This document shows, piece by piece, positions 6,911 to 11,864 of a stretch of 32,000 bases of DNA. The stretch comes from Microcystis aeruginosa NIES-2549 (GTDB taxonomy: Bacteria > Cyanobacteriota > Cyanobacteriia > Cyanobacteriales > Microcystaceae). Numbering within the stretch: the stretch's first letter is position 1; each line of letters begins with the position of its first letter. The position numbers were made by a program, and so were the translations under genes. The stretch lies in contig NZ_CP011304.1 in assembly GCF_000981785.2 (NCBI RefSeq), positions 2,520,001 to 2,552,000 on the forward strand, in the 5' to 3' direction. The notes below the pieces were generated by a model that saw only the letters and a program-made list of their open reading frames with translations, was not told the origin of the DNA and did not search any database.

Positions 6911-7059
6911 TTTTTTTTAGTTTTTAACCCTTTCTATCTCCTATTATAGGCATCCTAAAAGGGTTTTTTCGCCCAAATAGTGAAGAAAAACCGAATATCT
7001 CTGGCTGCCTCTTTGATTTTTTTTCTTTGAAAACTTCTCAAAAAAAGAGGAGTAATCCC

Positions 7060-7088
7060 TTGACTTGGGCGGCGGCTTCGGTTATACT
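7060..7088 (+). promoter_or_regulatory. near-consensus sigma70-type promoter, repeat unit 1
   Basis: TTGACT (7060-7065), a 17-nt spacer, then TATACT (7083-7088). An A-tract lies about 13 nt upstream of the -35 and could act as an UP element. Confidence 0.55.
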
Positions 7089-7253
7089 TTTCTTATAATG
7101 GGAATCTGTGCCTTTTTAGTTAGACTCTAACACTCCATTATATATAAAGTCTTATAAAAATATTATGGCAAAAAGCCCTGAAAAAAGCAAGCAAAATTTT
7201 GCCTCTTTGATTTTTTTCTTTGAAAACTTCTCAAAAAAAAGAGGAGTGACCCC

Positions 7254-7282
7254 TTGACTTGGGCGGCGGCTTCGGTTATACT
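7254..7282 (+). promoter_or_regulatory. near-consensus sigma70-type promoter, repeat unit 2
   Basis: TTGACT at 7254-7259, a 17-nt spacer, then TATACT at 7277-7282. The sequence is identical to unit 1. Confidence 0.55.
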
Positions 7283-7447
7283 TTTCTTATAATGGGGATT
7301 TGTGCATTTTTAGTTAGACTCCAACACTCGATTATATGTAAAGTCTTATAAAAATATTATGGCAAAAAGCCCTGAAAAAAGCAAGCAAAATTTTGCCTCT
7401 TTGATTTTTTTCTTTGAAAACTTCTCAAAAAAAAGAGGAGTGACCCC

Positions 7448-7476
7448 TTGACTTGGGCGGCGGCTTCGGTTATACT
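7448..7476 (+). promoter_or_regulatory. near-consensus sigma70-type promoter, repeat unit 3
   Basis: TTGACT at 7448-7453, a 17-nt spacer, then TATACT at 7471-7476. Confidence 0.55.
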
Positions 7477-7641
7477 TTTCTTATAATGGGAATCTTTGCC
7501 TTTTTAGTTAGACTCTAACACTCCATTATATATAAAGTCTTATAAAAATATTATGGCAAAAAGCCCTGAAAAAAGCAAGCAAAATTTTGCCTCTTTGATT
7601 TTTTTCTTTGAAAACTTCTCAAAAAAAAGAGGAGTGACCCC

Positions 7642-7670
7642 TTGACTTGGGCGGCGGCTTCGGTTATACT
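7642..7670 (+). promoter_or_regulatory. near-consensus sigma70-type promoter, repeat unit 4
   Basis: TTGACT at 7642-7647, a 17-nt spacer, then TATACT at 7665-7670. Confidence 0.55.
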
Positions 7671-7969
7671 TTTCTTATAATGGGAATCTTTGCCTTTTTA
7701 GTTAGACTCTAACACTCCATTATATATAAAGTCTTATAAAAATATTATGGCAAAAAGCCCTGAAAAAAGCAAGCAAAATTTTGCCGACAATTGTTAAAAA
7801 AGTCGGGCTAGTTTTGCTTACGGGGGGATATGACTTTAAACGGGTTATTTCTCGGTTATCCAAGCGGTTGAGAGAAGAAAGAGATCGGCAATTGATGGAA
7901 GAAATTGTAAATGAATAGAGAAAATCATGACTAATACATTTATCTGTGTTGATTTTAGTTTTATAAATT

Positions 7970-8066
7970 CTTGTAGGGTGAGTGTTTGCGGCGATAATCT
8001 CTGACAAAAAAACAAATTAATAATCGGCCGTAACGCCCAAATTTATCATCAAATTGGTGCGTTACG
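7970..8066 (+). repeat. partial copy of a MITE-like repeat (left flank of the hicBA cassette)
   Basis: CTTGTAGGGTGAGTGTTTGCGGCGATAATCTCTGACAAAAAAACAAATTAATAATC... aligns in direct orientation with 8550-8650. It ends at GGTGCGTTACG, just before the hicA stop codon. Confidence 0.7.
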
Positions 8067-8069
8067 TTG

Positions 8070-8276
8070 TCAAATATCATCTTCAGTTAATCCTGAATCT
8101 TTGAGAATACCTTTTAATGTTCCTATCGGTAAATCTCGATTTCCATGAGTTGGTATAACAATAATTGCAGAAACATTTTCTTTGATATAGATATAATGAC
8201 TTCCTTTAATTCTTGCCAATTTCCAGCCAAATCTTTCAACGACTTTACATAATTTTTTACCTGAGATTGACTTCAT
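8070..8276 (-). CDS. hicA: HicA-family toxin (mRNA interferase)
   Basis: 68-aa ORF with the HicA pattern (GKKLCKVVERFGW...KGSHYIY...IPTHGNRDLPIGTLKGILKDSGL). It overlaps the upstream hicB by 4 nt (8273-8276). Confidence 0.85.
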   Translation of the reverse strand: MKSISGKKLCKVVERFGWKLARIKGSHYIYIKENVSAIIVIPTHGNRDLPIGTLKGILKDSGLTEDDI

Positions 8277-8479
8277 ACAGAAATCTCCACTAATTGCTGA
8301 TTCTCTTTTCGATCAAGTAATTTTTTTTCATGAGAAACTTCTAACCAGCCTTCTATTGCCTCTTTAACCATGACCATCAAATCATCATAATTTTCTGCCC
8401 AAGTATGACAACCAGACAAAGCTGGTACAGTTGCACACCAAACATCATCTTCTTGCCAGACAACCACTTTGATATTCAT
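8273..8479 (-). CDS. hicB: HicB-family antitoxin (UPF0150-type fold)
   Basis: 68-aa ORF. Its sequence (VVVWQEDDVWCATVPALSGCHTWAENYDDLMVMVKEAIEGWLEV) matches the HicB N-terminal domain pattern. It sits immediately upstream of hicA and is translationally coupled to it. Confidence 0.8.
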   Translation of the reverse strand: MNIKVVVWQEDDVWCATVPALSGCHTWAENYDDLMVMVKEAIEGWLEVSHEKKLLDRKENQQLVEISV

Positions 8480-8552
8480 AATAAATATTTTTTATTGACT
8501 GAGATTTATTTTAATAATAACATAAACTTGTTTTTTTGTATAAGCCGATCTT

Positions 8553-8668
8553 GTAGGGTGGGTGTTTGCATCGATAATCTCTGACAAAAAAAACAATTAA
8601 TAATCCGCACCCCACGCAGCAACTTAATTATTAAATGGGTGCGTTAGCCAAAGCGTAACGCACCCTAC
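8553..8668 (+). repeat. MITE-like element with GTAGGGTG...CACCCTAC termini and an internal 10-bp stem hairpin (right flank of hicBA)
   Basis: GTAGGGTG at 8553-8560 is inverted at 8661-8668. GGGTGCGTTA (8637-8646) pairs with TAACGCACCC (8656-8665). The first roughly 100 bp are a direct repeat of 7972-8066. Confidence 0.6.
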
Positions 8669-8862: not shown

Positions 8863-9882
8863 TTAATTCTTTGTACCAATGCCATCACACAAATGTCTAT
8901 CTTCCTCCCTGACATTAATATTATTCTGCAAATAAACCCGCACCCAATCGCAACTACGCCCCATTAAAGCATCTAAATCCCAGCCATTGTTTCCATTCCA
9001 GAGTTTGATAGTCTTGTCCCAACTACCGCTCACCAAAGTCTTGCCGTCGGGACTAAAATTAACGCTTTCGACATAGCCCTCATGCCCCTTGAGGGTGCGG
9101 ATTTCTTTGCCTGTTTTTACATTCCAGAGTTTGATAGTCTTGTCAACACTACCGCTCACCAATGTCTTGCCGTCGGGACTAAAATTAACGCTATAGACAT
9201 AGCTATCATGCCCCTTGAGGGTGCGGATTTCTTTGCCTGTTTCTACATTCCAGAGTTTGATAGTCTTGTCAACACTACCGCTCACCAAAGTCTTGCCGTC
9301 GGGACTAAAATTAACGCTTATGACAGAGTCATCATGCCCCTTGAGGGTGTGGAGTTTTTCGCCTGTTTTTACTTTCCAGAGTATGATAGTTTTGTCATCA
9401 CTACCGCTCACCAATGTCTTGCCGTCGGGACTAAAATTAACGCTATGGACATAGCTACCATGCCCTTCTAAGCGATTGCGTTCACTTTTGCGGTTGAGAA
9501 GTTCCTGTAAGGCATTCATCACCTCCTTGTCGGATGCCTGCTGCTTTTGTAGAGTTTTTCCTGCCTTAATCGCTAAGACGAAAGCATCTAATTCTTTTCC
9601 TTTATCAAACAAAGACAAGGAAGAAAACCCGCGAGCATTTGTCAGATTAAGTTCCGCTTGTTGTGTTTTTTGCCAAGCCATCAAACCCAATCCCGTACTA
9701 ATCACCACCGCCACCAAGGAACCCGCCGCAATCCCCCAAGCGGTTCTAATTTCGCGCCGCCTGCGGGCTGCTTCGGCTTGTTTTATCCGTTCTCGTTCCT
9801 GAAGACTCCGCTTAATAAAATCCTGTTCACTTTGGCTAATATCTTCGGTTCTTCCGAACTTACACTGTAGAAAATTCCTCAA
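8863..9882 (-). CDS. TM segment plus WD40-repeat fragment; C-terminal half of a STAND NTPase-WD40 gene split by a MITE
   Basis: The 339-aa ORF begins at a TTG inside the inserted element. It contains one hydrophobic helix (AWGIAAGSLVAVVISTGLGLMAW) and four 42-aa WD40 repeats (GH..V.SVNFSPDGKTLVSGS.DKTIKLW). It becomes in frame with 9961..11433 once the element is removed. Confidence 0.85.
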   Translation of the reverse strand: MRNFLQCKFGRTEDISQSEQDFIKRSLQERERIKQAEAARRRREIRTAWGIAAGSLVAVVISTGLGLMAWQKTQQAELNLTNARGFSSLSLFDKGKELDAFVLAIKAGKTLQKQQASDKEVMNALQELLNRKSERNRLEGHGSYVHSVNFSPDGKTLVSGSDDKTIILWKVKTGEKLHTLKGHDDSVISVNFSPDGKTLVSGSVDKTIKLWNVETGKEIRTLKGHDSYVYSVNFSPDGKTLVSGSVDKTIKLWNVKTGKEIRTLKGHEGYVESVNFSPDGKTLVSGSWDKTIKLWNGNNGWDLDALMGRSCDWVRVYLQNNINVREEDRHLCDGIGTKN

Positions 9883-10009
9883 GCTCCCTCTCTGCCCAGC
9901 AAGGCTCTAAAGTTGATAAATATCAATCTAACAAAAACTCAAAAACTTAGTATACAAGCTTTACAAGCACAAGTTGTTGATAGTTTTACATGACAGGTTC
10001 GGTAGAGCC
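9847..10009. mobile_element. 163-bp MITE-like insertion with imperfect terminal inverted repeats and an 8-bp target site duplication
   Basis: ATATCTTC occurs at 9839-9846 and again at 10010-10017. The ends GGTTCTTCCGAAC... and ...GTTCGGTAGAGCC are inverted (12 of the first 15 nt match). The element has no coding capacity. Confidence 0.8.
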
Positions 10010-11433
10010 ATATCTTCTGGGCGTTTCTTCAGTTGTTCTTCCGCCTCCGCCAACGCCGCCCCGCGCAACAATGAGCCTTCATCCCCCTGCGTCTGCTGCC
10101 ATTGCCCCATCGCTCCCCGCAAACGCTCTTGCCAAGCGCGAAAAACCCTGTCTGTGTCCATCCAGCCCCGCAATTCCCCCCAATTGCGAATCAGTGCTTC
10201 ATGCACCACTTCCACCGTCTCCACCTGTGCCTCTTCACTGCGACTGGTGACAACTAAACGCGCATCCGCCAGTTGTTTCACCAGCGCCCAATTTACCGCC
10301 CCTAATTCCGCTTTTGTCGCCAGCCGCCGCGTATCTTCTGTGCCTTCCCCTGGGCGTACCAATTGGATGAAAATGCGCCGCATCTGTTCCCGTTGCGCCT
10401 CACTCAGCTTGTCATATTCTTCATTGGCATGGGGGGCCAAAGCACCCTGCACTTGGCCAATTTCTGTATATGCCAGATGGGTTAACTGTTGGCCCTGTCG
10501 CCGCTGCCACAATTCCGTTAAGGCAAACTCTAGTAATGGCAAATTCCCCGGCTCACTCTCCACATCATCGAGGATGCGCTCCACCAGTCCCGCTTCAAAT
10601 GTCACCCCCAATTTTTGCGCCGGTTTTTCAATAACTTCTGTGAGTTCTTCTCGGTTCATCGGCCCCAATTTCAAGTCAGTATTTTGTAAGACATCGGCAA
10701 AGGTACGATAGGAAAGAGCATTCCCCAAGAAATCGGCCCGCATAGTTAATACCAACACCATTCCTACCCTTTCAAAGGGGAATGTAGTTAATTTATCGAG
10801 AAAATTACGGCGGATTGTTTCATCAGGACAGAGGGTATAAAGTTCCTCAAATTGGTCGGCAATTAGCAGTACCCGTTCACTGGGATAATTGTGTTGGATT
10901 TGGGCAAAAACATCAGCTAAAGGAATGTCGCCATCACGCAAATAATTGGCTAACTGACGCGCTTGGGCGAGGCGGTCTGTCTCATTTAAATTAGTTGTAT
11001 AAAGGGGAACTAATGCCAAAGCTAGGGCATGAAAAGGGTCAGAACCGGGACGAAAATGGGTAAACTGCCAGTGACCTTCTTGTTGCAATTTAGGGACTAA
11101 TCCCGCAAAAACTACCGAGGATTTACCACTTCCCGACGCACCTAATAGGGGGATAAAATTACGGGTTTGGGTTTCCTGAAATAGGATTTTAATAAAGCTT
11201 TTGCGCCCAAAAAAGTATTCTGCATCTCCTGGCCCAAAATGAAACAAGCCACGATAGGGACAGGGCAGTTTATCATCGGCAACATCGGCAGAATCAGCAG
11301 GGGCTATTCTTGCTTCTTCTCGATAATAGTAATTGGTAATCGTGATGGTTGCATTGCCAGTCCCAGAGGTAGCAGCATATTGAGCTTTTGTAATATTTTG
11401 TTGAATTTCGCTTGGTTCTGACATATCAACCAT
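9961..11433 (-). CDS. STAND-type P-loop NTPase fragment (N-terminal half of the split gene) with an N-terminal G/N/S/T-rich motif
   Basis: 490-aa ORF. It has Walker A (LLGASGSGKSS), a Walker B-like segment (VLLIADQFEELY) and a helical arm. The last 16 residues (MALPNLSCKTINNLCL) are encoded by the inserted element. Confidence 0.85.
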   Translation of the reverse strand: MVDMSEPSEIQQNITKAQYAATSGTGNATITITNYYYREEARIAPADSADVADDKLPCPYRGLFHFGPGDAEYFFGRKSFIKILFQETQTRNFIPLLGASGSGKSSVVFAGLVPKLQQEGHWQFTHFRPGSDPFHALALALVPLYTTNLNETDRLAQARQLANYLRDGDIPLADVFAQIQHNYPSERVLLIADQFEELYTLCPDETIRRNFLDKLTTFPFERVGMVLVLTMRADFLGNALSYRTFADVLQNTDLKLGPMNREELTEVIEKPAQKLGVTFEAGLVERILDDVESEPGNLPLLEFALTELWQRRQGQQLTHLAYTEIGQVQGALAPHANEEYDKLSEAQREQMRRIFIQLVRPGEGTEDTRRLATKAELGAVNWALVKQLADARLVVTSRSEEAQVETVEVVHEALIRNWGELRGWMDTDRVFRAWQERLRGAMGQWQQTQGDEGSLLRGAALAEAEEQLKKRPEDMALPNLSCKTINNLCL

Positions 11434-11455
11434 CCTGATTAATTAAAATACAGTC

Positions 11456-11864
11456 TCAGTCATCCTTAGATGTGCCATGCTCGGTGATGCCGCTAATACT
11501 AGCATTACCCGTGCCAGAGGTAGCAGCATATTTAACATTACTGATATTTTGGGTGATAATTTGTTGTCCACCGGGTTGTTCTTGGAGCTTGTCTAGTAAA
11601 TCTTGGGCTAATTTAGTGATTTCATTATCTTTATCAACCCCGGCTTCGACAATTTTATCTTTTAACAAACCTTCAGCTTTCTTGATATCCTCTGGTTTTG
11701 CCTCTACCATGGCTTGTGCTAAAGCATCATTAGTAAACTTACGCTTAATCAAGGTTTTCAAACCTTGATATGTATCTATCTTTAACGCCTTTTTCCGCCG
11801 TATCCTTAGCCGCAGCAACCGCACCGGCAGTCAAGGCGGTGACAATCAGAGAAATTGGTTCCAT
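11456..11864 (-). pseudogene. small alpha-helical protein with a C-terminal motif matching the NTPase N-terminus (candidate Bell/HeLo-like effector); apparent +1 frameshift
   Basis: ATG at 11864 opens MEPISLIVTALTAGAVAAAKDTAEKGVKD..., which stops at 11745-11747. The body of the protein (YQGLKTLIKRKF...QNISNVKYAATSGTGNASISGI...) continues in the +1 frame down to 11456. Confidence 0.6.

Follow-up and report, generated by a model that had tools for sequence, protein, structure and literature searches.

A disrupted gene pair with a shared terminal motif in Microcystis aeruginosa NIES-2549, probably a decayed effector/receptor module of the Bell/BASS-NLR type

The gene pair and its shared terminal motif

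The window analyzed here is a stretch of 32,000 nucleotides (nt) of Microcystis aeruginosa NIES-2549 (contig NZ_CP011304.1, positions 2,520,001 to 2,552,000), and it carries on its minus strand two adjacent, collinear genes: one for a small protein related to Bell-type effectors, and one for a STAND NTPase with a transmembrane (TM) helix and WD40 repeats. The two products share a short motif, placed at the C-terminal end of the first and at the N-terminus of the second. Both genes are disrupted in the window, and the locus probably represents the decayed form of a cell-death or immunity module of the Bell/BASS-NLR type (NLR, NOD-like receptor), made up of two co-oriented genes. The features of the locus, in window coordinates, are as follows.

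11456..11864, minus: Bell-type small effector gene, a pseudogene here; ATG at 11864, stop at 11456-11458, repaired product 134 amino acids (aa)
11790..11864, minus: hydrophobic helix at the N-terminus ('MEPIS' helix), MEPISLIVTALTAGAVAAAKDTAEK, predicted to be the helix 1 that inserts into the membrane (hydrophobic 17-mer; modeled helix at residues 3-19)
11773..11780, minus: GATAGATA, a 4-bp GATA duplication that frameshifts the effector; a single GATA in the related loci L001 and L002
11486..11551, minus: effector-side motif QNISNVKYAATSGTGNASISGI, followed by a 9-residue tail; kept in 66 of 120 homologues among the matches listed
11434..11455, minus: intergenic spacer of 22 nt by the open reading frame (ORF) boundaries (31 nt with the second ATG, at 11424)
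11335..11400, minus: receptor-side motif QNITKAQYAATSGTGNATITIT, then NYYYREE; kept at residues 1-39 of nSTAND1 proteins
10078..11259, minus: nSTAND1 STAND NTPase domain, Pfam PF20703 (receptor residues 59-452; P-loop GASGSGKSS)
9847..10009, minus: insert of 163 bp resembling a miniature inverted-repeat transposable element (MITE), which splits the receptor gene; absent from related loci
8863..9846, minus: remainder of the receptor gene on its 3' side, with a linker, the TM helix, the WD40 array, a C-terminal tail and a stop at 8863-8865; in frame once the insert is removed
9676..9732, minus: single TM helix IAAGSLVAVVISTGLGLMA, preceded by RRRREIR (Kyte-Doolittle 19-mer score 2.03)
8990..9465, minus: four near-identical WD40 repeats in 126-bp units, from Tandem Repeats Finder (TRF) and Pfam WD40

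Retranslation and realignment of the two motif copies confirmed a preliminary description of the locus in their coordinates, in the count of 14 identities over 22 residues, in the core and in the 22-nt gap between the genes. The effector-side copy, read from 11551 to 11486, lies nine residues before the stop codon, and the receptor-side copy is read from 11400 to 11335; the longer segments that hold them are effector residues 96-125, QPGGQQIITQNISNVKYAATSGTGNASISGI, and receptor residues 4-36, MSEPSEIQQNITKAQYAATSGTGNATITITNYY. The ungapped alignment has 14/22 identical residues and 47/66 identical nucleotides, with an exact run of 19 nt, and the core YAATSGTGNA is the same in both copies. The spacer of 22 nt is measured on the same strand from the stop of the small ORF to the first ATG of the downstream one. 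Homologues of the receptor begin at the second ATG (MSEPSEIQQ), so the true spacer may be 31 nt, and the motif would then occupy residues 9-30 of the receptor instead of residues 12-33; spacers in related loci are typically 3-31 nt. Local alignment of the effector with the receptor scores 77, a value reached in none of 5000 whole-protein shuffles (maximum 71) and in none of 5000 shuffles holding the local composition of both termini (maximum 48). The whole window was scanned, and the Bell and motif profiles match nowhere else in it.

The repaired effector begins with the residues MEPIS and is identical over its full length at the level of 98% to the intact Microcystis proteins P0001 and P0002, and of 96% to P0003. 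It is homologous to proteins already catalogued as Bell: it has 42% identity (E = 1e-24) to the protein of L041, a locus that corresponds, in its organism and in the motif strings of both proteins, to the Sphaerospermopsis NIES-73 pair BAZ82063.1/BAZ82062.1 of Dyrka et al. (2020, Table S2), and the Bell-like ORF of L052 likewise matches PSB32048.1 of Leptolyngbya frigida ULC18 in that table. The Pfam HetE-N model is matched by a narrow margin (26.3 bits, for a cut-off of 25). In a model built by AlphaFold2 (AF2) from 111 homologues, residues 1-105 fold with high confidence into a bundle of helices (predicted local distance difference test, pLDDT, 82-94), in which residues 3-19 form a helix (pLDDT about 87); for residues 108-134, the motif tail, pLDDT falls below 50. 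The protein is modeled as a helical bundle, where an all-helical protein had been predicted, with a motif tail that is predicted to be disordered. The MEPIS region is common to Hell, Bell, Bab and some antiphage NLRs, where it is a buried, predicted pore-lining helix 1; its mutation abolishes cell death by Bab and lowers the antiphage activity of Avast2 (10.1101/2024.11.07.622273). In the survey of Kaur, Iyer, Burroughs and Aravind (2021, eLife 10:e70394, PMC8195603), 'HetE-N1' denotes the gene upstream of TPR+GreAB-C+PIN in Escherichia coli, which is the Bab/Agp architecture. We therefore assign the small protein, on sequence grounds, to the Bell/Babybell/HetE-N assemblage; its homology to the catalogued Bell entries and its MEPIS N-terminus uphold the earlier identification as a Bell-type effector rather than a member of an unrelated family. 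EACC1 (Kaur 2020) was considered as an identity for this protein and rejected, since that domain has a single TM segment and occurs together with caspases.

The downstream ORF matches Pfam nSTAND1 (PF20703) with E = 2.5e-122 and 409.6 bits (cut-off 27.1), over model positions 1-378 of 379, and it has no significant Pfam match to NACHT or NB-ARC. The receptor is therefore a STAND NTPase with WD40 repeats, yet of the nSTAND1 clade and with an intervening TM helix, whereas Bell/BASS pairs have been defined in print by NACHT or NB-ARC. Removal of the insert together with one of its target-site duplications yields a frame of 799 aa that runs through the motif, nSTAND1, the TM helix, four WD40 repeats and the tail, in agreement with the proposal that the gene encoded a P-loop STAND NTPase once continuing into a TM helix and WD40 repeats. 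TRF describes the WD40 array as 3.8 copies of a 126-nt period with 90% matches, and Pfam WD40 finds four stretches. The intact orthologue of M. aeruginosa NIES-4325 (L002) is 1256 aa long, with nSTAND1 and many more WD40 repeats. A comparable hydrophobic segment lies at residues 420-620 in 31 of the 42 nSTAND1 partners of at least 600 aa in related loci, and the nSTAND1+TM+BetaPropeller architecture is entered 278 times in supplementary file 1 of Kaur et al. (PMC8195603). The strongly positive flank RRRREIR upstream of the helix suggests, by the positive-inside rule, an N-in topology, in which case the WD40 array would be extracytoplasmic.

The number of WD40 copies varies strongly between alleles, from four units in the window to receptors of about 812 aa in L082 and 1256 aa in L002 (6428-10195). 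Fungal NLR sensors of the HET-E/D type show a similar instability of their repeats; collapse of the repeats during assembly is another possible explanation.

Lesions in the window and decay among Microcystis alleles

Consideration of the lesions shows that the window copy is a pseudogenized pair. The effector sequence is split over two frames: translation of MEPISLIVTALTAGAVAAAKDTAEKGVKD meets a stop codon, and the remainder lies in the +1 frame. The cause is the GATA duplication, for which L001 and L002 have the undisrupted version GGCGTTAAAGATACATATCAAGG; the 1987-nt alignment of the window with L002 contains this single gap. The receptor is interrupted after residue ~478, with a stop 15 codons into the MITE-like insert. 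The insert is bounded by target-site duplications of 8 bp, GAAGATAT, at 10010-10017 and 9839-9846, and has imperfect 13-bp terminal inverted repeats, GGCTCTACCGAAC and GGTTCTTCCGAAC. It is not present in L002 or in any related locus, and alignments with Microcystis break at 10010 and 9846; a second copy was found neither in the window nor in 159 related loci. With its effector frameshifted, its receptor split by the insert and only four WD40 blades left, the module of the window cannot work.

Disruption of the pair is a recurrent state within Microcystis. L002 is intact and L081 probably so, and L082 has a short-WD40 receptor of about 812 aa without the MITE. The receptor of L001 is truncated at 613 aa. 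For P0121, P0122 and P0126 the receptors are cut to stubs of 43-56 aa that hold only the motif, beside an intact effector gene, and in L003, L005 and L087-L089 a deletion has removed the effector-motif end and nearly all of the NTPase, so that the Bell domain is now joined to the C-terminal part of the receptor. The frameshift-plus-MITE allele of the window is one more independent lesion among these states. An origin of the L003/L005 deletions through recombination between the motif copies was considered and rejected; the junction joins the equivalent of window position 11540 to that of 10160, which is not in the receptor-side motif.

A contrary view would hold that the window module still works, the 4-bp duplication being an assembly or sequencing error or being bypassed by frameshifting, and the receptor halves acting as split proteins. 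The MITE-free receptor of L082 lends this some substance, as it indicates that reduction to four blades does not by itself imply an inactive receptor. However, the tandem duplication of GATA to GATAGATA is atypical for a homopolymer error; the insert has the target-site duplications and terminal repeats of a MITE, and its early stop parts the NTPase from the TM helix and the sensor; and the other independent disruptions in related Microcystis contigs make decay a pattern. We consider a functional window module highly improbable.

Motif classes and their pairing across related loci

Related loci were collected with a degenerate-pattern scan over one genome per GTDB species, in which 80 loci with a gene for a relative of the small protein were found, and a scan of metagenomes added 79 further loci. 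An nSTAND1-like ORF is present in 58 of the 80 genomic loci, mostly starting no more than about 30 nt downstream on the same strand. Where the downstream ORF was 150 aa or longer, as in 68 genomic loci, the C-terminal 50 residues of the effector were scored against the N-terminal 80 of its neighbor, and in 60 of these loci the score of the pair's own termini exceeded the maximum of 1360 shuffles.

The terminal motifs at these loci fall into six classes with explicit signatures. Class A, YAATSGxGNA, is that of the window locus; class B is QTQTNxxSGxxVGGxxFxPVQ; class C, FQGEVKGxQVGDxN, is the commonest and occurs in Nostoc; class D is GDVxGVAGxxxGTVN; class E, ISGGxVQG, has NACHT partners; and class F, from Microcystis, is DIKG...GIAGDISGG, also written DIKGxxGD...GIAGDISGG. 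These signatures replaced a single-linkage clustering of the C-termini, which had merged unrelated motifs. Across the six classes the genomic set contains 53 concordant pairs and no discordant pair, and the metagenomic set 29 concordant pairs (22 A/A and 7 B/B), again with none discordant.

The class of the motif is not bound to the type of Bell domain that carries it. The MEPISLIVTALTAGAVAAAKDTAEK-type Bell domain is joined to class A in the window, to class B in P0027 and to a further motif in P0080, and the MDPITTAI-type domain has class A in P0106 and P0113 and class B in L131 and L137. That one Bell subfamily is found with several motif classes implies that tails have been swapped and that the N-terminus of the receptor has followed; from these comparisons, motif class appears to be no simple function of effector phylogeny.

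Within class A there are 30 pairs with the motif on both sides, from Microcystis, Nostoc, Dolichospermum, Anabaena, Microcoleus and metagenomes, and in most of them the two copies start 149-157 nt apart. Identity is 11.3 for own pairs and 11.0 for cross pairs, a difference with p = 0.03 on shuffling of partners that is driven by Microcystis. The class A motif is too conserved for residue-level co-variation to be informative, and we therefore rely on concordance of class. The preliminary description had anticipated that partner motifs would co-vary within pairs; this is borne out for motif class, and at residue level inside class A the signal is weak. The copies keep a flavor of their own, S-rich on the effector and T-rich on the receptor, and those of Microcystis pairs are more alike (13-15/22) than those of other genera (8-12/22), which hints at some local homogenization.

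A run rich in N-Y-[Y/F] (ITITNYYYREE, NIIYNYF) closes the receptor-side copy of classes A and C and is missing from the effector-side copy, a conserved asymmetry.

To place the motif among proteins at large, a profile of 42 positions was built from the window's pair of copies plus four short fragments taken from the database and searched with HMMER against 1.84 billion representative proteins (E <= 0.001). It returned 41 matches, nearly all of them at the extreme C-terminus of proteins of about 125-160 aa (for example, 99-134 of 134) or within the first 39 residues of proteins 700-1300 aa long. Among the 15 long matches, 14 are nSTAND1 proteins (10 also with WD40) and one is a NACHT protein. 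The matches outside these two positions are short fragments, a few uncharacterized proteins and two probable false positives (P0141, a BACON-repeat protein, and P0154, a URO-D chimera). A 48-column profile of both sides found 11 short fragments among 49 candidates and is uninformative on long proteins. The segment is thus no common low-complexity element, as the earlier proposal required. One match, P0132 (157 aa), joins an effector-associated domain 1 (EAD1) to a class A motif at its C-terminus, and the motif is therefore not confined to Bell effectors. Across orthologues, codon positions 1 and 2 of the motif are 81-88% identical and position 3 is 53-55% identical, which places the constraint on the peptide and not on DNA or RNA.

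These data bear on whether the likeness of the two copies might be a chance resemblance of low-complexity segments, or the functionless trace of a recent local duplication or gene conversion. The segment is indeed rich in S, T, G, N and A, and the Microcystis copies, with their 19-nt exact run, are closer to each other than those of other genera. Against this, no shuffle reaches the observed score; both sides are conserved, with synonymous divergence, in the 30 pairs from several cyanobacterial lineages and from metagenomes; the motif is restricted in position across 1.84e9 proteins, with nearly all matches at termini; and five other classes follow the pairing rule. Together with the codon constraint, these findings refute an origin by chance or local duplication, to which we give next to no credence.

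In composition, 84% of motif residues are A, T, I, S, N, G, Q or V, and P (0.2%), L (0.1%) and K (2.9%) are scarce; the motif is about 22-24 residues long, with polar and hydrophobic residues alternating around a G-x-G-N turn. BASS motifs favor Q, N, G, V and I and contain little K, P or L, and by this measure the composition looks typical of BASS-type amyloid signaling motifs. An alternative is that the motif is a homotypic adaptor and not an amyloid, forming a stoichiometric complex by beta-strand augmentation in the manner of an EAD, so that the effector is recruited without prion-like templating. Such a role would accord with the 'EAD-coupling principle' of Kaur et al., in which adjacent genes carry the same short adaptor, with the fusion of a class A motif to EAD1 in P0132, and with the S-rich and T-rich flavors, which are as expected of a heterotypic interface. 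However, the length, the lack of P and L and the alternating pattern are the bias reported for BASS motifs; the motif is disordered in the AF2 monomer; and all BASS motifs assayed so far are reported to have made fibrils, with the same result for BASS11 in the Bab/Agp study (10.1101/2024.11.07.622273). We regard the adaptor alternative as unlikely, and the amyloid-type module as the better account of the pair.

Relation to known systems and proposed mechanism

Dyrka et al. (2020; 10.1101/2020.01.06.895854; J Mol Biol 432:6005) derived BASS1-10 by matching the C-termini of Bell proteins to the N-termini of neighbors with Pfam NACHT or NB-ARC. The window pair resembles their pairs in having a helical effector of about 130 aa with a hydrophobic N-terminal helix, a terminal motif of about 22 residues, rich in G/N/Q/S/T and poor in P/L, in both proteins, a very short distance between the adjacent collinear genes, WD40 repeats on a STAND NTPase and a host among the cyanobacteria; it differs in its nSTAND1 receptor, in the TM helix between NTPase and repeats, and in motif strings that are not in Table S2. 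In the table of that study, Microcystis is represented by BASS5, BASS10 and one unassigned pair (10.1101/2020.01.06.895854). The strings YAATSG, SGTGNA, TSGTG, AATSG and AATSA occur nowhere among all 346 pairs of Table S2, unassigned ones included, and neither do GEVKG, GVAG and APVQ of classes C, D and B; class E pairs, with their NACHT partners, are entered there as unassigned or BASS9-related. By eye, class A differs from the example motifs of the eight published BASS families other than BASS3 and BASS11, the latter described from E. coli, where Q92, D99 and N100 are its key residues (10.1101/2024.11.07.622273). From these string and by-eye comparisons class A appears to match no published BASS1-11 signature, and a remote kinship, for instance with BASS9/10 'N-x-T-A-x-[DG]-x-S', is possible. 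The simplest reading is that motif families linked to nSTAND1 were invisible to that pipeline because it accepted only NACHT or NB-ARC neighbors.

The nSTAND1 conflict systems of Kaur et al. belong to the same NTPase clade and include the nSTAND1+TM+BetaPropeller architecture, but in the accessible parts of the survey their upstream partners are TIR+DrHyd, caspase, EACC and similar domains (PMC8195603). One row seen there, the 781-aa receptor HAC65097.1 of Cyanothece UBA12306, has its upstream genes marked '?'; our locus L014 comes from the same organism (Cyanothece sp. UBA12306) and has a receptor of equal length, and its upstream gene is Bell-like with a C-terminal motif that matches the N-terminus of the receptor. 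Many other nSTAND1 rows of the portion seen have TIR+DrHyd upstream (PMC8195603), partners that may be coupled to their receptors in a similar way. Both surveys would have missed these modules for technical reasons, one through its restriction to NACHT and NB-ARC receptors and the other, in the one matched row, by leaving the upstream gene unnamed.

Bab/Agp of E. coli (BASS11) is the only pair for which signaling by amyloid conversion and killing of the cell has been demonstrated in vivo (10.1101/2024.11.07.622273). It shares with the window pair a MEPIS-type helix 1 in a small helical effector whose C-terminal motif recurs in the N-terminus of the sensor encoded beside it, and both effectors come under the HetE-N or HetE-N1 label. 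Unlike that of the window, its sensor is TPR-GreA/B-C-PIN and not a STAND protein; its Babybell domain is shorter (about 80 aa), its motif is of another family, and it lies in a prophage defense hotspot, a setting not seen at the window locus. In the fungal pairs HET-S/NWD2 and HELLP/PNT1, an N-terminal motif of the NLR templates the C-terminal prion-forming motif of a neighboring HeLo or Hell membrane effector, a logic that the window pair would share. The fungal motifs HRAM, sigma and PP are unrelated in sequence, the receptors are cytosolic NACHT or NB-ARC NLRs, and HET-S has two pseudo-repeats where the window effector has one. Full-text searches, of incomplete coverage, found no literature that joins nSTAND with amyloid signaling or that names BASS12 or BASS13. 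The kind of system is known; the class A motif family and the pairing of Bell with nSTAND1 appear to be new to the literature.

In fungi it is established that NLR-type receptors signal to pore-forming effectors through amyloids. We propose, by analogy, that an intact module of the present type (as in M. aeruginosa NIES-4325) would consist of an effector of about 134 aa, in which a five-to-seven-helix bundle buries the MEPIS helix and a flexible tail bears the motif I-x-Q-x-I-S-N-V-K-Y-A-A-T-S-G-x-G-N-A-S-I-S, and a receptor comprising, from N- to C-terminus, the same motif, the nSTAND1 NTPase, one TM helix and a WD40 propeller array. Sensing of a ligand by the WD40 array would lead to NTP-dependent oligomerization of the receptor, and the clustered N-terminal motifs would adopt a cross-beta (beta-arch) fold. 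This fold could then template the motif of the effector tail, which is in identical register; the bundle would open, the MEPIS helix would enter the membrane and the cell would die.

A number of observations weigh against this reading of the locus. The receptor has neither NACHT nor NB-ARC, the sole classes assayed for BASS behavior on the NLR side. Within class A, residue-level co-variation is not significant when Microcystis is left out (p = 0.37). For the effector, sequence search and Foldseek with the confident model gave no meaningful match in the PDB, and the assignment to the Bell fold consequently rests on sequence homology. PADLOC has no model for effector or NTPase, and the same is true of NCBIfam. 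The neighborhood, with a P-type ATPase, hicAB and housekeeping genes, is no obvious defense island. Foldseek against the PDB likewise found no structural link of the effector to HeLo, MLKL or Bab; Bell folds vary widely in topology (10.1101/2024.11.07.622273). The conserved architecture, the homology of the effector to Bell and the pairing rule nevertheless bear out the preliminary description of the locus as an effector/receptor pair, with the reservation that both genes are disrupted here, and on balance we favor the decayed Bell/BASS-NLR-type module.

More tentatively, and with some doubt, we raise the possibility that Bell effectors and transmembrane nSTAND1 receptors make up a large set of amyloid-type modules in cyanobacteria, with at least five motif families (A, B, C, D and F), that is in neither survey. 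The window copy, as a pseudogene pair, has no direct physiological role. The locus and about 100 related pairs extend the pairing rule to a third STAND clade, nSTAND1, to membrane-anchored receptors and to several motif families missing from the published catalogue; they offer larger training and test sets for predictors of amyloid motifs, and intact pairs to study, for example in M. aeruginosa NIES-4325 and Nostoc punctiforme. If the WD40 sensors are extracytoplasmic, a prion-like relay would carry an outside signal to a cytoplasmic executioner. To our knowledge, no such relay of an extracytoplasmic signal has been described for any NLR-like system. That the pair has decayed repeatedly and independently in bloom-forming Microcystis would fit a suicide module that is costly or can be dispensed with, and the pattern bears on the balance of altruistic death and autoimmunity in colonial cyanobacteria. 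The function of cyanobacterial Bell/NLR pairs has been described as still to be elucidated (10.1101/2024.11.07.622273).

Two further features lie nearby in the window. A 194-bp unit is repeated 4.0 times with 97% identity at 7006-7785, and three of the units each hold the same 30-aa ORF, MAKSPEKSKQNFASLIFFFENFSKKRGVTP. Immediately downstream of the receptor gene, on the minus strand, are a hicA toxin gene (8070-8276) and a hicB antitoxin gene (8273-8479), flanked by direct repeats of about 100 bp at 7969-8064 and 8549-8646 that are 81-90% identical; hicAB with its flanking repeats (7969-8646) looks like a mobile or recombined cassette.

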